Origin: Octopus vulgaris
Lineage: Eukaryota
DNA length: 64,000 bases
NCBI GenBank assembly: GCA_951406725.2
Contig: OX597819.1
Coordinates: forward strand, 109,120,001 to 109,184,000
Direction of reading: 5' to 3'
Both the position numbers and the translations under genes were made by a program. The notes under the pieces were generated by a model that was not told the origin of the DNA, made no database searches, and was given only the letters and a program-made list of their open reading frames with translations. Shown here piece after piece: positions 22,058 through 64,000 of this stretch (position 1 is the stretch's first letter; every line of letters starts with the position of its first letter).

Positions 22058-23439
22058 CACCAATGTCCCAAAGTGTGCTTGTTGCTTAAATTGATCTATG
22101 ATGATACATTTCGTCGGCTACATATATAATAACTGAAGCAAGCTCACAAAGATTTGACTTGATATTTATTGTGGGATATAATGATATTTGGTGTTAGCTA
22201 ATCACAATGAACAATATTAATAATTGCTGATTGAGAGAAGAGGAAAACTGCTCCAAAAACATAGAAGGTTATCTGTGTGACATCATGCGGTCAGTCCAAA
22301 AATACATGGTCATCTGCGCAAATCATTGAGGGGATCTGTGGCGTCAGAGGTTCGTTGACTGTCTGCCCGCAGTGAGTTAGTCAGTTGCTTTCAAATATGT
22401 GATTAATAGAGCGCAAAAAAAACGGGATTTTATAGGGAACAAGAAGTCATATTTTCAAATAATTGAGAAAACCCTATCACGCCACATCCTCATGCTTGGT
22501 TTATCGACTGATCACTTAAAGCTGCAATGGTTCACTTGAGGTATCTGACTGAGTATCTAGCAGTTAGGTTTCAAATCCTCGCTACACGCTTATTTCATGA
22601 CCATGACAGGAAAACAACAAAATATATATAGTATGTTCATCACTTAAAATTTCCAAATGAATTCTCTGTAAATTATAATTTGAAATGAAAGTTTATTGAC
22701 AGTTAGGTCATGTCAAGTGATGAGTATAACTACAAGGATAGGGGTGGTACAGGAAATGCTTCTATGTTGAATGGAACTTGTCCTGCTACCCAAAATGCTT
22801 ACCTACCCAGCTCCACTACAAATGGAGTGATGTTCAGACACTTAGAGTATAGTTTCCTAAGTTGTAACCACAAAACTCCCACGGAATACTCTCTGGTGAG
22901 GTGACACTGCGTTCAGACCAACATTATGTATAAATGCAAGGTTGAATTTCATTATTATTGCAAGTTTTACATAGGGGCCACTGTAAACTGCATTGCCATG
23001 CATCTGTATAAAAGACAAGATGTGTGTGTATGTGAATGTAATTTATGCATATCCATAAATTAGAACGCATGTCGCTCCAATTTTAGGAGGACATTTGTCA
23101 CAACCCTAGCTGTATTTTCGTCAAATTATTTCCCCCGAGTCACAAGCGAATAGCGGTGAAAATAAATTTTCGACCATAACTTAACAATTTTCACAGCGGA
23201 GAAATCAACCATTGTTTACAAACATGAGTTAAGTCCCCTTCTAGCGACTGTGTAAAGAGAAGGAGAGAGAGAGATAACAGATTTTTTAAATTTCATCTTT
23301 TTACTGAGTGATTGACAGGCAAAAGCAGACAGACAGGTGTTGTTATGTATGTATGTATGTGTGAATGGCTTCAGTCACACACACAAACATGTATGCATAC
23401 AAAACACATGTATGCAATGTGTGTGCGTGTGTGTTGCCC

Positions 23440-23471
<32 letters not shown>

Positions 23472-23476
<5 letters not shown>

Positions 23477-24813
23477 CAAAGGGCCTTAGAGTCAACCTAG
23501 CTAAAACCAAAGTCCTAATAAGTAGGAAGGTAGACAAGTCACAAACGCCTTCAGGTAGATGGCCTTGCTCGATCTGTAGGAAAGGTGTAGGTAGAAACTC
23601 TATAAGATGCACCAAGTGTAAGCTATGGACACATAAGAGGTGCAGCAACGTCAAGGGAAGGCTAACTAGGAAGATAGTTTTTGTATGTGGCAGATGCTCA
23701 GGAGCAATAAACACTGAAAATGCGCAGAGAGCAACTTCCGTCACATTCCAGGGAGAAAAACTAGAAATAGTTGATAGCTTCCGTTACCTAGGTGACCAAG
23801 TCAGTAGCGGGGGCGGGTGTGTTGAAAGTGTAACTGCTAGAGTAAGAATAGCTTGGGCAAAGTTCAGAGAGCTCATACCTCTGCTAGGGACAAAAGGCCT
23901 CTTGCTCAGAGTAAAAGGCAGACTGTATGATGCATGTGTACGAACAGTCATGCTACATGGCAGTGAAACATGGGCCGTGACTGCTGAGGATATGCGTAAG
24001 CTCACAAGAAATGAAGCCAGTATGCTCCGATGGATGTGTAATGTCAGTGTTCATACTCGACAGAGTGTAAGTACCTTGAGAGAGAAGTTGGACCTAAGAA
24101 GCATCAGTTGCGGTGTGCAAGAGAGACGTTTGCGCTGGTATGGTCATGTGGCGAGAATGGATGAAGATAGTTGTGTGAAAAGTGCCACACCCTAGCTGTT
24201 GAGGGAACCTGTGGAAGAGGCAGACCCAGGAAAACCTGGGATGAGGTGGTGAAGCACAACCTTCGAACTTTAGGTCTCACCGAGGAAATGACTAGAGACC
24301 GAGAATTTTGGAAATATGCTGTGCGTGAGAAGACCCGGCAGGACAAGTGAGACCATAACCCATGGCCTCAGTCCACTTATGCATACCTTTCCTTCTTGGG
24401 ACACAAAACTCTACTCGTGAAGACCTGTTGAGGCAAGTGAAAATCAAAATCAAAATCAAAATCAAAAATCAAAATGGATCAACATGAATGGAAATTGTAG
24501 ATGTGATACCAGTGCCGGTGGCACATAAGAGAACCATCCGAATGTGGGCGTTGCCAGCCCCGCCCTGACTGACTTCCGTGCCGGTGGCACGTAAAAAGCA
24601 CCATCCGATCGTGGCCGTTTGCCAGCCTCGCCTGGCACCTGTGCCCGTGGCACGTAAAAAGCACCCACTACACTCATAGAGGTGTTGGCGTTAGAAACAT
24701 TGCCAGATCAGACTGGGCCTGGTGCAGCCTTCTGGCTTCCCAGACCCCAGTTATACCGTCCAACCCATGCCAGCATGGAAAGCGGACGCTAAACGATGAT
24801 GATGATGATGATG
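23472..24813 (+). mobile_element. 5'-truncated RTE-clade LINE (RT C-terminal part, PHD-like finger, 3' UTR)
   Basis: GLRVNLAKTKVL...DSFRYLGD...LLRVKGRLYDACVRTVMLHGSETW...RRLRWYGHV; 1-nt frameshift near 24180; (GAT)n tail; starts after (TA)n. Confidence 0.92.
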
Positions 24814-25030
24814 TATATATATTATGTGAAATAGAAAGATGAATAATCTTGTAGCAGATTAATCAAAAGTTTAACCGATACCTTGGTAGCAAAAATCACA
24901 GCAGAAGACAGCACGGTTGGAGGTACAACCATATGGTGTTGCAACTGTGCGTTGGTGCGGATAATTGAATTTTAATATTATTGGTGAATTGAAGAAATGG
25001 AGCTGAACGAAGATTGAACAGAAATCGTTT

Positions 25031-25123
25031 TATTTCATTCTACACGTGTTTCGAAAGGCACAATTTACCAAAATCCAATTGAATAATGAGACCATATTGT
25101 GTCTTTCTCTTCAGGAAGAAATA
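25031..25123 (-). ncRNA. Type I hammerhead ribozyme in the inverted 5' pLTR copy
   Basis: Reverse-complement copy of 27845-27937, with the core and all stems retained. Confidence 0.85.
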
Positions 25124-25430
25124 GGAAATCCGTTGGAAAAAACAAAAACAGAACAGAGGCGGAGCAAAACAAATCGAACTAGGCTCCTAAGAGCCCATGG
25201 CAAAACTGTTTATCAGTGTATGTTGAGAACTGGTGGTTGAAGATTTTAACGGGTCAGGCAGCGGTCATTCCTGTGGGTGAAGGTGTGTAGATGTTCTTTG
25301 TGACCGGGAATAAAGTTCTGACTATTTAAGGAATATTGGATGTATTATAAGGGGCGAGAAAAAATCTACTTAGAGACATGTGTGTGTTTACTGTGTGTTT
25401 AAAGGAAATAATATTTAAACACGGAATTCA

Positions 25431-27230
25431 AATGAGAACGCAGCCGCTTAGCCCTAAGCAACCCAGATTTATAGTGAAGGACCATAAACCGAACTTCCAC
25501 ACCAACCCAGCGCTAAGACTCATATGCCCTGCTAGCTCTGATATCGGGATAATCAGTAAGTACATTTTAGATAAATATATCCCTAGTTTAGTAAACAACC
25601 TGCAAAACACCACGAACAGAATAGTGCAGAAAACTAAGAGCAGGTTAGCTAGGTTTTTTAATAGAATGGGCATGAATATAGTTTTTGATAATGAACTCAC
25701 CAAGGCTAATTTCCTAGACGTTACACTTAACCTTAATAGCGACTCATACTGCCCTTACCATAAGCCTTCCACTAATTTGAAGTATGTCAGTGTCTTCTCA
25801 AATCATGCCAAAGCCGTAACAGACAATTTGGTTAAAAACATCTCTCTAAGATTGTCTGGCTTGTCCGCCAGTGCCGATATTTTCATGCAGAAAGCGGAAT
25901 TTTATAACGCCGCACTATCCAAGGCCGGTTATAGGCAGAAGGTAATTTATATTGATCCGGCCCTTCCGATGCCATCATTCGGTCATCAGGATAGGGCCGT
26001 CTATAATAACATAAACAATTTAAGTAGGGACGGGAGCGCAGCGGGTGCTGGGGCAGTCGCTCCCGCATTTAATTTAGCGAACAAGGATAATTATCGGTCC
26101 GGGAGATCTCACACTAACCCAAAACCCGTTATTCATCCGAGAATCACCCACCCGAATGCGAGAGCTGGCGTCCCGACCCATCACACAGATAGGAATAAGC
26201 ATATATGGTTTGTAATTCCCTTTGGTAAGCAGATTAGAATTAACCTCCCCCTCATGTTTAGACAAGCCATCGCCAATAACTTCCCCAGAAATTCCAAATA
26301 TTACTCCACGGTTAACTCGCATAAAGTTAGGATAGCTTTCTCCAACACTAAAAACCTCGCCCAGATAATCGCCTCCCATAATAATAGGCTGCTTACTAAG
26401 ACCCTATCACCTTTTTCCGGAGGCACAGCCTCTTCCGCTCCCGGTTTAATGCTCAGTAGGAATAATTATAGTAGTAATAATGATATAAGAGCCAGTACAG
26501 TGACTCATAGTCTCAGCTCCAGCCAGGGATTACACACTAGGGGTATAGTTTTAAATAGGGGTGTTGTAGTTGACGGTAACAATGGGAGTAGGGTAGAGAG
26601 TCCCAATAGCAACCCCAGCATCATTTCCTGCAATAGCAGCACCACGGGCACTAGCAATGACAGCACTCTGATAGATAGTGGAGAATCAGGGGTTATTCCG
26701 TTAGTTAATAGTGACGTAGTGGAAAATAAAGTAGTAAGCGGCTGCAGTTCTCATAACAAATATAGTGACAGTAACGCAGTTCTAATTTCAGAAACTAATC
26801 CTAGCAGAATAAGATTCACGTCGGCAAACTCCAAGATCAGAAACGCCGTCTACCAATGCAAGGTCAGACTCAGATGTCTACCAATGCAAGGTCAGACTCA
26901 GATGTCTACGCTTATGTAGGGGCCTCATCGTCAAGATTGGCTTTGCGAATCTCCAATCATTACGCAACTTTTCGGGACATGAATAAACGCCAGACCACGG
27001 GACTCAGCAAGCTAATATGGCGATTGAAGGATATGAACTCAAGATATAGGCTGGAATGGTCAATTTTGTCGGTGGCCCTCCCATTTGATAGGGGCAGAAG
27101 GAAGTGCAACCTTTGTGTCTCCGAACTCTTCCATATTTTGTTCGCCAGAGACCGGATGGTAAACGGACTTTTACAGTCGGCTTTTCGATGCCCCCATTGG
27201 CGGCGTTACACTTATCTGGCTTATAAATAA
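25431..27230 (+). pseudogene. Penelope-like RT/GIY-YIG ORF, RT core deleted and frameshifted
   Basis: The RT N-terminal motifs join directly to the thumb region with no YxDD. GIY-YIG AVYQCKV/YAYVG..R..NH...CNLC...RCPH is split by a frameshift at a 28-bp tandem duplication (26848-26903). Confidence 0.85.
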
Positions 27231-27844
27231 CGCTGATAAATAATACCTGCACCCATAGCCCTTGGTAATAAATTCTGAAATAGCCTTTAAGATAATTACG
27301 ATTAACCACTGCAAGGGGAATTACTCCTGTAAGATAAACGGGGCTTTGTTTTTGACGACGGGGGTTTCTTTGACAAGGCATAATAAGACGAACACACGCA
27401 CACATAAAACATAAAATATTTTTCTACCACCCAACGGTTCTTACTGCAGTAGCCATTGTGTAGAGCTGCTTAACAACTGACAGCCGAGCGATCAAACGCA
27501 CACACGTACACAAAAAATGTTTTCTACCCCTTGACGGAGTTCTTGCCAACCTGCGCCAGCACACATATATAGAACAGTAAACACACACATGTCTCTAAGT
27601 AGATTTTTTCTCGCCCCTTATAATACATCCAATATTCCTTAAATAGTCAGAACTTTATTCCCGGTCACAAAGAACATCTACACACCTTCACCCACAGGAA
27701 TGACCGCTGCCTGACCCGTTAAAATCTTCAACCACCGGTTCTCAACATACACTGATAAACAGTTTTGCCATGGGCTCTTAGGAGCCTAGTTCGATTTGTT
27801 TTGCTCCGCCTCTGTTCTGTTTTTGTTTTTTCCAACGGATTTCC

Positions 27845-27937
27845 TATTTCTTCCTGAAGAGAAAGACACAATATGGTCTCATTATTCAATTGGATTTTGG
27901 TAAATTGTGCCTTTCGAAACACGTGTAGAATGAAATA
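27845..27937 (+). ncRNA. Type I hammerhead ribozyme in the 3' pLTR
   Basis: Stem I TATTTCTTC/GAA(T)GAAATA; core CTGAAGA (27854-27860); stem II GAAAGACACAAT/ATTGTGCCTTTC; GAAAC-ACGT-GTA; predicted cleavage after 27927. Confidence 0.85.
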
Positions 27938-29625
27938 AAACGATTTCTGTTCAATCTTCGTTCAGCTCCATTTCTTCAATTTCTTCAATTCCCCAATAAT
28001 ATTATATATATATACACACAATATAAATGATATTCTCCATTTCTCTACGACTAATTTCCAAATTAGCTGAATCCGTTGCTCTACTCATAGCGATATATAT
28101 GATCATGTGTGAACATGGGAGAGAGCAGAGGTTACTAGAGCAAAAGACCTACGTGTTGATTGTAGACACGCTCCTTCGCAAACGATCAGCTATTATTTTG
28201 TAAACAATGTTTCGATACTGTTCATGTTTTCGAAAGGTGAGATCTGACTCTCACATCTCTATGGGAGAAGGTAGGCCTCTATTCCCCTTACAAAGCTTAT
28301 GTCTGGGTGTTTACAAATTTGCATTTTGTAAACAATGTTTTGAAACTGTCCATGTTTTCGAAAGGAGAGATCTGACTCTTTTCAACCATAACATCTACCA
28401 ATTTTGATGTATTTTGTTCAAACTTGATGCCAGCATTACTTAGGTCTCATGGGATCTTTGAATGCTTTAAGTTCTCCAAAGATGAAAAAAAAAACAATCG
28501 ATGAGTGGAAAAAAATCGATAAACCGATTCCTTATGAGATTTCCCAATCAAATTGTCTACAAAATTTCAGCCAAAAGTTTACGGATTTCACTCAAATTTG
28601 ACGTCGATGTTACTTAGTTTGCTTTGAAATAAAGAGCTTGATTAGCTGAATAATCCTAACTTAATCCCAAGCAAAGCCAGGCTATACTGTTAGTAATCAT
28701 TATTTTGCCAAGCCAAGTATAGGGTTCTTTACATTCATATTCCAGATTAGAGAATGGTTAACTATAGTTGGAAGATGTCAGTGCATGGGTGCACCTGGCC
28801 CTATCAAGGACAGGGAAACATCTCTGTGAACTTTGCATCAAAGAGGGGTTGGAAATTATATTATCTAATAGTTACCACTTTTTTAATATATGTAATATAG
28901 AAGGGATATTTTGTCACACAGAAACTCTTGAATGTCCTGACAGTACCAGATGGATCTTAACCATTATTACAATGAGATAGGCTTGTCTTCAGCTTTTACC
29001 AAACACGTTATGGAGGTATCTTTGCAACCTTGTTGCCCAAACACAATGATTAAATGTGTCCTGTATCCCATATTGGAATCAGGCTTGTCACCAGATTTTG
29101 GTGCCTGATGATGCTTCAGAATATTCTGGGTGGACACTAATTTGTAGTAATGCTAAAGTGAAGTTTCAAAATAAGAGTATCACTGTAAATCTGAGGGTGC
29201 ACCATTGAATATTAAGGAGGGTAGTACCATCCAATGCACCCACTTAGTGACAGGTATGATTGGAATACCTCTGTTGTCTACTCTGCTGCATTTGCACCTC
29301 TGTCATCCTCTCCCCTAATATGTGTCTCCTTGCCATGCATGTCCACTGGAGCATGTATGGAGAAGCAAAATGGAGAGATGGTGGAAGGAGTTATAGAATA
29401 ATGAGAACATATGAAGTAAAAAAGGCAGGTACATTTTAAAGAATTGATTGAGGTTGACAAAGTTAAGAGTGGGCGAAGAGGTACAGTCAAGAATAGATGC
29501 TGGGGGACAATAAAGGTGATCCAGAAGAGAGAATTTGCTAGCAAAGATAGAATGTACTGGACAAGAGGATGGGTGTGATTCATTACAGCTTCTTGTATAT
29601 GAGCATAGTGAAAGTTGAGTAGGGG

Positions 29626-35732: not shown

Positions 35733-35791
35733 ACCGGATATAATCACTCCGCTTATAGTCACTCCTTTTATACTCACCATGTTTATAGTCA
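35733..35791 (+). repeat. Four ~15-bp tandem units (consensus like CCGNTTATAGTCAC) upstream of the TIGD ATG
   Basis: CCGGATATAATCAC T CCGCTTATAGTCAC T CCTTTTATACTCAC C ATGTTTATAGTCAC. Confidence 0.75.
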
Positions 35792-35836
35792 CATACTTGG
35801 TACTTTGAAGTTTTATATGTATTATTCACTGCCACA

Positions 35837-37366
35837 ATGTCAGAGAGCAGACAAAAAAGAAGGCAACTATCGTTGGGACAGAAAATTGAAATTCTTGACT
35901 TTATAGAATCAGGTAAGAAATTAGCTGACATAGCGTCTTTATTTACATGCGACAGATCAACCATCTCTAAAATTAAGAAAAATGCCAAAAAGCTCAGGGC
36001 TGCAAATGTTAACAACAGAAACTCGAAGAAGATTAGAAATCGGAAAAGCAACTTTGAAGACGTCGAAGAAGCTCTACTTAAGTGGTTTACCCAAATGAAG
36101 TGTGTGAATGCTTCGGTAAACGGCCCTTTGATGCTACAAAAAGCATCTCAGTTTGCAGCATCTTTGGGGATAAAAGAGTTTTCGGCTTCCAGTGGGTGGC
36201 TAGAACGATTTAAGAACCGACACAATATTAAATTTTCTAGACTTCACAACGAACAAACGCCAGGTGAGGAATTCGTAGCAGCGGACAGGTGGCTTGAAGA
36301 CAAACTGAAGGAAAAAATTAAAGGATATAAGCCCAGAGATATTTTCACTGCTGCTGAAACATGTCTACTATATAAAGCATTGCAGCCGGGAATAATTACA
36401 TTCCAAGGTGGGAAAACCAATGCAAATAAAGTACCAAAGGAACAGGTTACTGTCCTGGTTTGTGTTAATTCAGATGGCTCGGAAAAAGACCTTCACATCG
36501 TTGGCAAACATCCAAAACCTGCGTGTTTCGATCGAGTGCAAAAATTGCCCCTCTCCTATTACAGCAATCAGAAATCCTGGATGACCAACGATATATGGAA
36601 GACGATTTTGTGGGAAATGAACCAACAGTTCCAGGCGCAGAACCGCAAGATAATTTTGTTTGTTGACAGTGCTGCATGTCATCGATGTGCTAATAATACA
36701 ACGCCGGCTATCAGAGTTGTTTATCTGCCAAAGGGTACTCATTTCATCCAACCTTGCCGCCAGGGAATTATCAAATCTCTAAAAACTCATTATCGGCGTC
36801 ATATTAACCGAAGAATGCTCACTGCGTTCGAAAACGGCGTGGCAACCCAAGAATTTACTAGATCCCTCTCCGTACTAGATGCCATGTTTATGTTGAAACG
36901 GGCCATGGTTTTAGTAACACATCGGACAATCCGAAACAGCTTTCTAATATCTGGTTTTCCTTTTGAAAGCGATGAAACCGCCTGGTCAGAGCAGGGGGTT
37001 AAAGATGACGAAGAAGACGAAGAAAATGAGACATTTAATAAGTTTGTCAGTATCGACGACGAATTACCGACATATGGCGAGCTTACAGACGTCGACATCT
37101 GCAAACAAGTAGCAACTCCAATTGATAAACGCTATCTTGTGGACGACGATGAATGTGATGTAGATAATAAAGAGAGAGTGGAAGAAAAGCGACAGTTGAC
37201 GAGAACAGAAGGTCTGGCAGCTATGTACACCTTCAGAGCCTACCTCGAACAGAAGTTCGAAAACTTTGATGATTTGCCTTTTGTAAAATTAGAAGAAATG
37301 GTCGAAGATGATGCTTCCAAAGGACGCAATCAAATGTTGATTAAGAATTCTTTAGAAAAGAAATAA
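35837..37366 (+). CDS. Tigger/pogo transposase-derived CENP-B/TIGD-like protein (HTH_psq, HTH CENP-B, DDE_1), likely domesticated
   Basis: Intact 509-aa ORF: RRQLSLGQKIEIL, DVEEALLKWF, FSASSGWLERFKNRHNI, YYSNQKSWMT, ILFVD, acidic tail. Catalytic D1 is A (TAAET) and D3 is R (QPCRQGII). No flanking TIR pair seen. Confidence 0.88.
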   Translation: MSESRQKRRQLSLGQKIEILDFIESGKKLADIASLFTCDRSTISKIKKNAKKLRAANVNNRNSKKIRNRKSNFEDVEEALLKWFTQMKCVNASVNGPLMLQKASQFAASLGIKEFSASSGWLERFKNRHNIKFSRLHNEQTPGEEFVAADRWLEDKLKEKIKGYKPRDIFTAAETCLLYKALQPGIITFQGGKTNANKVPKEQVTVLVCVNSDGSEKDLHIVGKHPKPACFDRVQKLPLSYYSNQKSWMTNDIWKTILWEMNQQFQAQNRKIILFVDSAACHRCANNTTPAIRVVYLPKGTHFIQPCRQGIIKSLKTHYRRHINRRMLTAFENGVATQEFTRSLSVLDAMFMLKRAMVLVTHRTIRNSFLISGFPFESDETAWSEQGVKDDEEDEENETFNKFVSIDDELPTYGELTDVDICKQVATPIDKRYLVDDDECDVDNKERVEEKRQLTRTEGLAAMYTFRAYLEQKFENFDDLPFVKLEEMVEDDASKGRNQMLIKNSLEKK

Positions 37367-47039: not shown

Positions 47040-47561
47040 TCAATCCAATTCCTCCGGTCGTACCGGATGCAATAAGGGTATCACAGATTTTTTGTCCTTG
47101 TCTCTCGATAAAGCTTTCCGCATATCAAACGCATCCTCGTCGTCCAGTCCAGAGTAATATTCCAGTACACGTCTATAGACTGTATAACCCAATTTGTTGT
47201 ACATGTCGACGGCAACTTTATTCGATACTCGCACAAACAAGTCGACGAAGAAACACTTCTTACGTTCGGAAATCTCCTCCAGTGTGTGCATAAGTTTGGC
47301 AGCAAGTCCGAGACGTCTGTGTTCGGGCGAAACGGACAGAGCTGTAACGTGTCCGTGCCAGTTCTCGGCTCTGCCTTCGGCTTTACCCATGATGTAACCC
47401 ATGATTTCGCCCGAGGGTGATTCGGCAACCTGAAAATACTCGGGCCATTGTGCTAAATACTGCATATAGAAGGCCAGGCCATATGTTTCGGTAAGTGGAT
47501 CTAAATTGACGTTGTTGAACTTGAATAAATCCGAACAAGTAAACGGACGAATGGTAGTCAT
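47040..47561 (-). CDS. NAA20: N-alpha-acetyltransferase 20 (NatB catalytic subunit), single-exon CDS
   Basis: MTTIRPFTCSDLFKFNNVNLDPLTETY...WPEYF...GKAEG..ENWHGHVTALSV...FVDLFVRVSN..A..MY..LGY.VYRRVLEYY...EDAFDMRKALSRD; complete 173 aa. Confidence 0.97.
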   Translation of the reverse strand: MTTIRPFTCSDLFKFNNVNLDPLTETYGLAFYMQYLAQWPEYFQVAESPSGEIMGYIMGKAEGRAENWHGHVTALSVSPEHRRLGLAAKLMHTLEEISERKKCFFVDLFVRVSNKVAVDMYNKLGYTVYRRVLEYYSGLDDEDAFDMRKALSRDKDKKSVIPLLHPVRPEELD

Positions 47562-47686
47562 TATATTCTTATAATAATTAATTAAACCAAAGAAATGCGT
47601 TGATGATAAATGAAAGAGGGAAAAATAACAAAGTAAAGAAAAACACCGCCGAACAAGACAAAAATCTACAAGTTCTGAGACATTTA

Positions 47687-47738
47687 CCGGAAGTTAAGGT
47701 TTTATTTAACTTCAGACAGTAAAACAGCGGCTTCCTGT
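47687..47738. promoter_or_regulatory. Putative NAA20 promoter with ETS-like sites
   Basis: CCGGAAGT at 47687-47694 and GCTTCCTGT near 47730, about 130-170 bp upstream of the ATG; motif-based only. Confidence 0.4.
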
Positions 47739-51052: not shown

Positions 51053-52443
<1,391 letters not shown>

Positions 52444-60579: not shown

Positions 60580-61743
60580 ATGACAAATTATCCTCTCATG
60601 ATGAATCATTTAACTAAAGCAAACAACCCTGATACAGGTGAGAAAACATATCACTCTAATACCTGCAGTAAATCATTCTGTCAGAGTGGTGTATTGGCTA
60701 GACACAAACGTACACATAGAGGGGAGAAGCCCTATCATTGTGATATCTGTGGTAAATCGTTCTCTCAAACTGGTAACTTGACTACACACAAACTAACGCA
60801 TACAGGAGAGAAGCCATACCATTGTGATATCTGTGGTAAATCATTCTCTCAAATTGGTAACTTGACTACACACAAACTTACGCATACAGGAGAGAAGCCA
60901 TACCATTGTGATATCTGTGGTAAATCATTCTCTCAAACTAGTAACTTGACTACACACAAACTTACGCATACAGGAGAGAAGCCATACCATTGTGATATCT
61001 GTGATAAATCATTCTCTCAAATTGGTAACTTGACTACACACAAACTTACGCATACAGGAGAGAAGCCATACCATTGTGATATCTGTGGTAAATCATTCTC
61101 TCAAACTGGTAACTTGACTATACACAAACTTACGCATACAGGAGAGAAGCCATACCATTGTGATATCTCTGGTAAATCATTCTCTCAAAGTGGTAACTTG
61201 ACTACACACAAAACTACGTATACAGGAGAGAAGCCATACCATTGCGATATCTGTGGTAAATCATTCACTCAAAGTGGTAACTTGACTACACACAAACTTA
61301 CGCATACAGGGGAGAAGCCATACCATTGTGATATCTGTGGTAAATCATTCACTCAAAGTGGTAACTTGACTACACACAAACTTACGCATACAGGGGAGAA
61401 GCCATACCATTGTGATATCTGTGGTAAATCATTCTCTCAAACTGGTAACTTGACTACACACAAACTTACGCATACAAGAGAGAAGCCATACCATTGTGAT
61501 ATCTGTGGTAAATCATTCTCTCAAACTGGTAACTTGACTACACACAAACTTACGCATACAAGAGAGAAGCCATACCATTGTGATATCTGTGGTAAATTAT
61601 TCACTCAAACTGGTAACTTGACTACACACAAACTTAGGCATACAGGAGATAAGCCATACCATTGTGATATCTGTGGTAAATTATTCACTCAAACTGGTAA
61701 CTTGACCACACACAAACTTACGCATACAAGAGAGAAGCCATAA
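60580..61743 (+). CDS. C2H2 zinc-finger protein copy B with homogenised 84-bp finger array
   Basis: 12 near-identical [23 protein letters not shown] units in frame before a TAC>TAA stop at 61741; degenerate fingers continue to about 62583; AATAAA at 62801; acceptor at 60157. Confidence 0.85.
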
Positions 61744-61929
<186 letters not shown>

Positions 61930-63488
61930 TAAACTATTCTCAAAGGAGTGACTTAACTAGAAACAAACGTACATCTACAGGAAAGAAGCCATTGAGCACC
62001 ATTGCGATATCTGTTGTAAATCATTCTCTGACAAAGGTACGTTGATAAAACACAAACTTACACATATAGCAGAGAATCTATATCATTGTGATATTTGCGG
62101 CAAATTCTTCCTTCAGAGTGGTGTCATGACTAAACACAAACGTGTACATACAGAAGAGAAGCCATATCATTCTGACATTTGTGATAAATCATTCACTCAA
62201 AGTTGTACCTTAACTAGAGACGAACATACAAATACAGGCAAGAAGCCATACCACTGTGATATCTGTAGTAAATCGTAGTCTTGTAATAGTCAGTTCACTA
62301 CTCATAAACGTACACATACAGGCAAGAAGCCATACCACTGTGATATCTCTGGTAAATCATTCTCTTTTTGTAGCGACTTAAATAAACACAAACGATGTAC
62401 ACAGACAGAAGAGAAGCCGTATCATTGTGATATCTGTGGTAAATCATACTTTAGAAATAGTCAGTTGACTATTCACAAACGTGTTCATACAGGAGAGAGG
62501 CCATATCATTGCGATATCTGTGGTAAATCATTCCCTCAAAAATGTCAATGAAGTAGACATTTGAGTATTCATACACAAGTGTAAAAATATCAATATCAAA
62601 ATTTATTACAACATATCAACAATTATGAGTTTTTTGTCTTCTACAAGACAAGGTTTATTCCTCTTCAAGCTTGATGTGTTCAACTTCAATTTTATAAATA
62701 TCAACTTCAGTATCATGGATATATCTAAATATATCAACACAATGAGAACTTTGATTTTTGATGAGGATTGTGCTGGATTTTGAGGAATTTGTTAGGAGAG
62801 AATAAAAGAATGAGAATAATGAATAAAAGATTTAAGGGAAATTGATTTGGTCTTTGTTGTGTTTTCCTCATGGTTGACTTTGTGTTTCATCCTTTCGAGG
62901 TCAATAAATTGAGCACCGTTTATATACTGGAGACAATCTAATTGCCTGGCTCCTCCCCATAAATTTTGGGCCTTGGGCCTAGAGAAGAGAAGAATATTTG
63001 CTATGTTGAATTGCTAAGTCATTTAACTATCCTCTTTATCTCACTGACTCTTTTTTTCTATTTCAGAATATCACATCCTGTTGACATAAAAGAAATTACT
63101 TCATTCAGATGTGCCTTTGATATTTTTATCAACTTTTATTGACTAAAGAAAGACGATATATTTATAAGGAGCATTCATCAATACATCTACCTTTTTACTA
63201 TAAAGAAAATCTATGACAAAATATGGCAAAATATTTCTTCTGGACGATGGAATTAACAGCAACAATTTGAAGTCCTTGCTATCTGGAATATAGAGGAGAT
63301 GATTGCTTTACAGGTTAATTAAGCTTGGATAACTTTACAAAGGCGTAGACAATTGTCACCTCATGATTTAGATATTAAGCAAAATCTCAGAGGAAAGAAA
63401 CGTCATTAAATTATTCCCTAAAAATAGTGACACAACTGAACACAAACATTCTCATAGAAATGAAATACACACTATCATTGTGATATGT

Positions 63489-64000
63489 ATGACAAATAAT
63501 CCTCTCATAATGAATCATTTAACTAAAACAAACACATCTGATATAGGTGAGAAACCATATTACTCTAATACCTGTAGTAAAACATTCTCTAAAAGTGGTG
63601 TCTTCACTACACACAAACAGACACATAGAGGAGAGAAAGCATATCATTGTGATATCTGTGGTGAATCATACTCTTATAATAGTCAGTTGACTATTCATAA
63701 ACGTGTTCATACAGGTGAGAAGCCATATCATTGTGATATCTGTGGTAAATCATTCTCTCAAAGTGGTGCCATGACTATACACAAACGTACACATACAGGT
63801 GAGAAGCCCTATCATTGTGATATCTGTGGTAAATCATTCTCTATGAGTGTTGCCTTAACTAAACATAAGCGTACACATACAGGAGAGAAGCCCTATTGTT
63901 GTGATATTTGTGGTAAATCATTCTCTCGGAGTGGTCACTTGACTAAACACAAACTTACACATACAGGAGAGAAGCCATATCATTGTGACATTTGTGGTAA
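63489..64000 (+). CDS. C2H2 zinc-finger protein copy C (open to the window edge)
   Basis: MTNNPLIMNHLTK...[47 protein letters not shown]...; no stop before 64000; acceptor TTTCAG at 63066. Confidence 0.85.
   Translation, partial: MTNNPLIMNHLTKTNTSDIGEKPYYSNTCSKTFSKSGVFTTHKQTHRGEKAYHCDICGESYSYNSQLTIHKRVHTGEKPYHCDICGKSFSQSGAMTIHKRTHTGEKPYHCDICGKSFSMSVALTKHKRTHTGEKPYCCDICGKSFSRSGHLTKHKLTHTGEKPYHCDICG

Follow-up and report, generated by a model that had tools for sequence, protein, structure and literature searches.

The 64,000-nucleotide (nt) stretch of Octopus vulgaris DNA analysed here, which we call the window and whose positions serve as coordinates, contains at 24816-28004 a dead, internally deleted insertion of a young Penelope-like element (PLE) of the Hydra type, with inverted pseudo-long terminal repeats (pLTRs) that each carry an outward-facing hammerhead ribozyme motif. 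Such paired outward ribozymes are the usual insertion shape of this family and not a special design. We consider it fairly probable that each arm began as a complementary DNA (cDNA) on an uncut element RNA, that the two cDNAs were primed at two fixed sites of this RNA, one by each strand of a nicked (TA)n target, and that they were then joined head to head. Element positions are numbered relative to the predicted ribozyme cut, with +1 at 27928.

Two end sites and strict pairing of the arms

Family ends were collected in two samples. The first consisted of the first 100 of 355 exact matches to a 30-mer, in genome order; the second, which overlaps the first and includes the window copy, was anchored near one end site (A) and took the first 100 of 250 matches, leaving 98 arms after two anchors within tandem units had been dropped. 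In the first sample the ends lay either at site A, at about +222 (47), or at a second site B, at +51..+72 (53), and 37/37 inverted pairs combined an A end with a B end, for which independent choice would give about 0.5^37. An inverted partner was found for 77 of the 98 A arms of the second sample, all 77 partners ended at B (+36..+81), and the stretch of about 155 nt between A and B, the tail, was present on exactly one end in 77/77 pairs. Because this layout is the default insertion product, no locus-specific function is needed for the paired ribozymes. The (TA)n target named in a preliminary description of the locus was found throughout the family, with 100/100 anchored ends near TA runs and 97/98 A ends within them.

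Both end sites are kept in divergent subfamilies. A second family, which bears the linker zinc finger discussed below, has sites at +21 and +92, and 9/9 anchored pairs among the first 30 of 8165 matches were again A+B. This second Hydra-type family (L263, L264, L273-L302) has 718 codons, an intact linker finger and many fold-backs of ~200 bp. Site A precedes the ATG by 40-45 nt in both families. A conserved bulged hairpin stands ~15-20 nt before site A (window 24835-24861, minus strand; near +177..+203 in the intact copy L057); no clear hairpin was seen before site B.

Among the 50 pairs with an arm overlap of at least 60 nt, the two arms share 22 variant sites, compared with 1.7 expected by random re-pairing, and 38 sites are unshared. 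The joins are direct in 52/77 pairs (overlap -10..+1), and many of them use short palindromic overlaps. A rival reading is a snap-back or self-priming event: one cDNA, or an antisense RNA, would fold back on its 3' end, copying would yield the second arm, and this arm would then be trimmed or resolved at B. Such an event accounts for the shared variants and the strict A+B pairing, the palindromic joins agree with it, and antisense RNA has been proposed as a fold-back template in Adineta vaga (PMC3846280). Fold-back of an A-primed cDNA, however, needs a B arm that starts at or downstream of the 5' end of the A arm, and this is violated in 36/77 pairs, the window locus included, where the B arm extends beyond the A arm on the 5' side by more than 20 nt. 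We therefore regard snap-back as unlikely, a longer antisense template trimmed at both sites being the form of it that might still apply.

A 5' wall and a candidate RNA start

The 5' ends of the A arms are spread evenly from +180 to -159, pile up at -172..-160 and thin out beyond, with 12 ends in 13 nt where 2.1 were expected (P 3e-6). The stop rate is 0.31 at this wall, compared with 0.058 at the cut and 0.01-0.08 in typical bins, and 67/72 arms read through the ribozyme cut. A candidate pile-up of 5' ends at the cut was rejected once a downstream anchor was used. At the wall stands nCA(G/T)T, 9 nt ahead of a conserved ATGGGCTC, in 17/18 loci (2/20 without the landmark), and TATAA is found at -28 in three loci. 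In the second family 13/30 5' ends lie at -43..-45, ~30 nt after a TATAAA (-74), five of the alignments being unreliable. Judged by the consensus for initiators and TATA spacing, the wall would mark the start of the element RNA. Paired arms tend to share a side of the wall (43/9/9/16, odds ratio 8.5, P 8e-5). A conserved ATGGGCTC...GAGC hairpin (window 27770-27781), 9 nt after the candidate start, makes a 3-codon upstream frame in the window copy and may be a downstream promoter element or serve translation control.

The position of the wall also bears on the proposal that the ribozyme-cut RNA, as a monomer or a circle, is the transposition template (PMC4209133). The fold is conserved by covariation, as described below, tandem units exist, 5' ends just past the cut (+1..+10) are in slight excess (4 vs 1.4 expected, P 0.055), and a religated circle would likewise be read through the cut site. 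The strong 5' wall lies at -167 and not at +1, though, and a circle has no 5' wall; a cut template as the general rule is in our judgement decidedly improbable.

A proposed insertion mechanism

In the mechanism that we favour, the element RNA would start at the initiator-like motif at -167, and the element protein, possibly a dimer by analogy with PMC11167929, would nick both (TA)n strands. One of the resulting 3' ends would prime at A and the other at B via short TA matches, both cDNAs would run 5'-ward through the uncleaved hammerhead until drop-off or the RNA start, and microhomology or filler would join their ends. Short fold-backs would result where priming takes place in the start-proximal pLTR, and long arms like those of the window copy where it takes place in the downstream pLTR.

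Several points weigh against this account. The transcript, its start site and its cleavage are all things that we infer from genomic sequence, and the subfamily of the window copy has no TATA box before the wall. Junctions were placed by BLAST to within a few nt, and the ends merge into TA runs. Stops downstream of B are seen in only 11/77 A arms; mutual blocking of the two reverse transcriptases (RTs), as in L1-type twin priming, would therefore not occur, and how both copy the same stretch is left unexplained by the mechanism. The excess of 5' ends just past the cut suggests that some cut templates may be used, and the shared variants could reflect two RNAs of one active source locus or later arm conversion. 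Finally, the RT start site observed in vitro is the same on both target strands (PMC11167929), which by itself would not predict a strict A+B pairing. Of the sequencing runs, 14 were guessed to be RNA, all of them consisting of contigs. Four runs compared with the intact copy and four with the window locus contain family sequence; among the pieces listed, none crosses the junctions of the window copy or gives a signal of start, end or editing, and they are evidence neither way.

Structure and decay of the window copy

The arms at 24987-25394 and 27574-27981 are complementary across 408 nt, with 407/408 matches and a single mismatch at 25231/27737; ~14 more matching nt are broken by a 9-nt duplication in the right arm. 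The inverted arms of the preliminary description, given there as ~420 bp, were recovered. The left arm alone extends to about 24816-24822, the right arm lacking this stretch, and in tandem units the ~155-nt tail is the stretch preceding the ATG. The features of the insertion are as follows.

24814..24821, no strand: (TA)n target, left junction, where end site A (about +222) lies (sequence)
24822..24972, minus: one-sided tail of ~155 nt, between end sites A and B
24973..25394, minus: left inverted pLTR arm, 5'-truncated, 5' end at -354
25031..25123, minus: type I hammerhead motif of the left arm, with cleavage predicted between 25041 and 25040
25395..25401, no strand: 7-nt filler at the inversion junction, repeating 25384-25390
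25402..26838, plus: remnant of the open reading frame (ORF) from ORF nt 487, KDHK region, then thumb and linker
25598..25602, plus: 5-nt microhomology junction of an in-frame 396-nt deletion
25978..26193, plus: insert 1, of low complexity and predicted to be disordered (residues 487-558 in the intact protein)
26413..26772, plus: N/S-rich insert 2, predicted disordered, residues 632-752
26773..26838, plus: cysteine-free conserved segment (NAVLISETNPSRIRF...), at the position of the CNCx(n)CPxxxxC linker finger of relatives
26839..27230, plus: remnant GIY-YIG endonuclease (EN), CxxC and CxH present
27574..28004, plus: right pLTR arm to site B (about +66; shifted here by the 9-nt duplication)
27759..27764, plus: initiator-like ACAGTT, A = 27761 (-167), with its mirror at 25207 on the minus strand; putative transcription start (5'-end pile-up)
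27845..27937, plus: type I hammerhead motif of the right arm, with cleavage predicted after A27927
28003..28014, no strand: (TA)n target, right junction (sequence)

The segment between filler and deletion corresponds to ORF nt 487-687 when the window copy is compared with the intact copy L057. The 396-nt deletion takes out the RT motifs FDIASFY, PMGSSDS and YRDD, that is, the catalytic core; the undeleted form of this stretch is present in one sequencing-run contig. A 28-nt duplication at 26848-26903 (net +23 nt) shifts the frame of the EN remnant, and the internal ORF is not intact. The window copy has neither an ATG nor an upstream direct pLTR and is therefore dead.

The hammerhead motif

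A type I hammerhead had been described in each arm, and its elements, CUGAAGA, a 12-bp stem II with one mismatch, GAAAC and GUA, were found on both strands. On the plus strand the core CUGAAGA lies at 27854-27860, stem II at 27861-27872/27904-27915 (12 bp with one A-C mismatch), GAAAC from 27916 and the palindrome ACACGUGU at 27919-27926, along with the GUA triplet and the predicted cut after A27927; stem I consists of 3 bp, a bulged U and 6 bp. The minus-strand mirror has its core at 25114-25108, and both cores are intact. An Rfam search returned no hammerhead match at E<=5, and our initial hammerhead descriptor missed the motif because stem I is bulged.

The preliminary description had tied its claim to stem covariation among genomic copies, and such covariation is present. 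In 16 copies picked to span several subfamilies, the core CUGANGA / GAAA / UH of the three-stem motif is invariant (16/16 aligned copies), variation being seen at N7 (A/U) and H17 (A/C) of the conventional hammerhead numbering. Overall 87.7% of cells pair, a value reached in 0/500 shuffles, a test that kinship among the copies inflates; two-sided changes occur in 10/31 pairs, slid controls pair at 32-50%, and RNAalifold finds 5/10 pairs compensatory. The 31-nt extension of stem II, described before as a loop, is 82% paired with only one two-sided change and probably holds a further helix. A change CG>UG>UA in stem III preserves the palindrome in 16/16 copies, a weak support as CpG decay could also produce it. 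Stem III of the second family carries a loop of 8 nt that includes ACTAGT or TCTAGT.

Folding predictions agree with the minimal, dimer-type hammerhead with a palindromic stem III that had been proposed: pair probabilities are 0.85-0.99 for stem II and <=0.04 for stem III in the monomer, and two copies cofold into a double hammerhead in which stem III forms between the molecules over 8 bp (-44.7 kcal/mol, compared with 2 x -15.9). Cleavage by the predicted ribozyme is likely to require a dimer or the help of protein, and insertion likely does not depend on it.

The preliminary description went further and had the paired ribozymes act at the locus, ending transcripts from either strand, while a read-through transcript would hide the ribozyme in a duplex (408 bp by our count) and supply ADAR or Dicer with substrate. 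The geometry for termination at a self-cleaving site is there, with both ribozyme cores intact, but the 67/72 arms that pass the cut indicate that genomic copies mostly derive from uncut templates. Co-transcribed arms would pair very stably (duplex -765 kcal/mol), and passive editing of such long hairpins is plausible. Yet the putative start sites (27761 on the plus strand, 25207 on the minus strand) fire outward and never span both arms, so the duplex would need a host read-through transcript. Moreover, the inverted layout is the default product, stem III of the monomer is unstable, and published single minimal motifs failed to cleave (PMC4209133). We judge such a function at the locus very unlikely.

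The family and its protein

The arm is present in at least 40 copies at 98-100% identity in the 2.8-Gb genome (40 of 1558 candidates scored), and a 64-residue query recovered many open 899-codon frames. Eight intact frames differ by 0.3-2.9%, from which we conclude that the family is young. A natural tandem array gives a unit of 3625 bp with the ATG 267 nt past the ribozyme cut.

That the element is Penelope-like, as first described, is borne out by the predicted folds of the intact family protein. Its model (predicted local distance difference test 78.7) has telomerase RTs as its top five Foldseek matches (E 1e-8 to 1e-7), and the model of its EN domain is nearest to I-TevI (Z 8.9, root-mean-square deviation 2.5, 89 aligned), followed by T4 EndoII (Z 8.1) and other GIY-YIG folds; Foldseek gave the EN domain an E of only 0.02. 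Neither RT nor EN was recognised by Pfam and NCBIfam profiles, and a sequence search against solved structures gave no match. The family thus combines a telomerase-like RT, a C-terminal GIY-YIG domain and tandem or inverted pLTRs with a one-sided tail, as expected of EN-bearing PLEs.

The earlier assignment to the Hydra clade stands in part. The intact protein has KDHK and YRDD, DKT in place of DKG at residue 126, and RWL at the RWK position (RWK in 87/120 homologs, RW[KRL] in 108/120). Its EN has no CCHH; CxxC (CNLCVSE) and CxH (RCPH) stand around the conserved E and N, with no cysteine between YVG and CxxC. The unit of 3625 bp exceeds the usual Hydra-clade length of under 3 kb, and the CxCx5C zinc finger of the Hydra-clade linker is absent from the lineage. 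In a midpoint-rooted FastTree of 127 RT sequences, built without a named Hydra reference or outgroup, ten members of the lineage group together with support 1.0, and the sisters closest to this clade, P0001 and P0003, have the linker. By sequence and published features, the lineage appears to be Hydra-type and not a full member of the clade.

(TA)n targeting and the probable loss of the linker finger

None of the 11 long frames of the lineage has the linker CxCx5C, which is present in 106/120 homologs (116/120 with looser spacing) and also in other families of the genome. The cysteine-free segment that replaces it is conserved at 0.89 among 10 lineage members, compared with 0.60-0.68 for the two disordered inserts. 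Other families of the genome have N-rich inserts yet keep the finger. As the nearest sisters in the RT tree and the insert-bearing families keep it, loss is the likely direction, and the sequences suggest that the lineage likely lost the finger rather than never having had it. Three Hydra-type frames (L233, L237, L246) with both N-rich inserts and an intact linker finger may be pre-loss intermediates. When homologs were searched for with scoring on residues 745-899, none of 171 candidates was a relative at E<=0.001, a weak, word-limited result.

The lineage inserts in (TA)n without the finger, as the ends described above attest. Hydra has been cited as reinforcing the link between linker and (TA)n targeting, and the linker-less Chlamys elements also target repeats (PMC8557442). 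The finger could still be the targeting device if a relative with the linker guided the finger-less family to (TA)n in trans, and a linker-bearing Hydra-type family, with 8165 exact matches of its ribozyme 26-mer, is present in the same genome. Such steering seems to us a rather remote prospect: the finger-less family has many intact frames only 0.3-2.9% apart, its EN codons show 10 silent and 5 replacement changes between subfamilies (1 and 0 in the replacement segment), this segment is well conserved across the 10 members, and the lineage retains its own end sites.

We therefore put forward, tentatively and with a little less than even confidence, the combined proposal that a recently active lineage targets (TA)n without the finger and always primes one strand at A and the other at B on one uncut RNA. 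If this is true, the Penelope 'tail' and the inverted pLTR would be products of a single event, two-site concerted priming by an asymmetric RT dimer, for which this lineage would be the widest-spaced test case.

Neighbouring features

On its left the insertion is adjoined by a fragment of another retroelement (23365-24350) with PHD/C1-type finger matches, which we take from its motifs to be RTE-like, followed by a very high-copy repeat (24480-24790). Elsewhere the window holds a 525-codon open frame for a pogo/Tigger-type DDE transposase (35789-37366; DDE_1, HTH_Tnp_Tc5, CENP-B_N), an uninterrupted 217-codon frame with a GNAT acetyltransferase domain (47040-47693, minus strand) and tandem arrays of C2H2 zinc fingers with period 84 (51172-52400, 60632-62540, 63473-64000).

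Comparison with known systems

Inverted pLTRs with hammerheads and a one-sided tail have already been published (PMC3846280, PMC8557442), and 31 recently active Penelope-like families were counted in O. vulgaris, their clades unnamed in the accessible text (PMC13282606). We found no linker-less Hydra-type lineage, 155-nt tail or strict A+B rule in the literature; subscription journals, Repbase/Dfam and the supplements of PMC13282606 and of bioRxiv 10.64898/2026.07.22.740005, whose accessible text does not mention octopus, may hold the family.

The Hydra clade comprises PLEs with a C-terminal EN, among them Hydra-1_Obim from Octopus bimaculoides (Craig et al. 2021, PMC8557442), which by eye is a different family from ours. 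DKT, KDHK, YRDD, a GIY-YIG domain with CxxC/CxH, a pLTR hammerhead and a (TA)n target are shared, and Penelope-13_HM has an inverted, 5'-truncated copy with hammerheads on both strands, like the window copy. The family described here differs in its unit of 3625 bp and protein of 895 residues (Hydra elements are generally under 3 kb), in RWL for RWK, in the absence of the linker CxCx5C and in a stem II of 12 bp with a 31-nt extension, whereas the Hydra motifs listed have stems of ~3-7 bp and loops of 3-10 nt. The minimal PLE hammerheads of Cervera and de la Pena (2014, PMC4209133) are likewise type I and dimer-dependent, with a long helix II and a palindromic minimal helix III, and pairs on opposite strands are mentioned; the helix II arm is longer here.

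The Penelope elements of A. vaga (Arkhipova et al. 2013, PMC3846280) share inverted pLTRs with a tail on one of them, an internal microhomology deletion, N-rich inserts between RT and EN and an initiator-like pLTR motif. The tail there is 31 bp and called optional, whereas here it is about 155 nt and on one end in every pair; self-priming on an antisense template was favoured for those insertions. Our proposed mechanism builds on the findings for Poseidon_Ac in vitro (Frangieh et al. 2024, PMC11167929), with two internal RT starts flanking the tail, an AT-rich target, nicking and extension of both strands, uncut RNA as the dominant substrate and a dispensable, protein-assisted ribozyme. Its starts lie inside the ORF, 30-40 nt apart, whereas ours lie upstream of the ATG and about 155 nt apart, and the accessible text does not describe inverted insertions whose two ends are each tied to one of the sites.

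PLEs are the closest retroelement relatives of telomerase, and the origin of their tandem and inverted insertions and their preference for microsatellites are named open questions (PMC8557442). The architecture seen here is a known one at an ordinary dead locus, and it is the family itself that has new, mechanistically useful signatures: intact young frames, two widely spaced end sites and a mapped candidate RNA start. As a natural linker-loss variant beside a linker-bearing family in one genome, it makes both questions testable with the existing in vitro assay.

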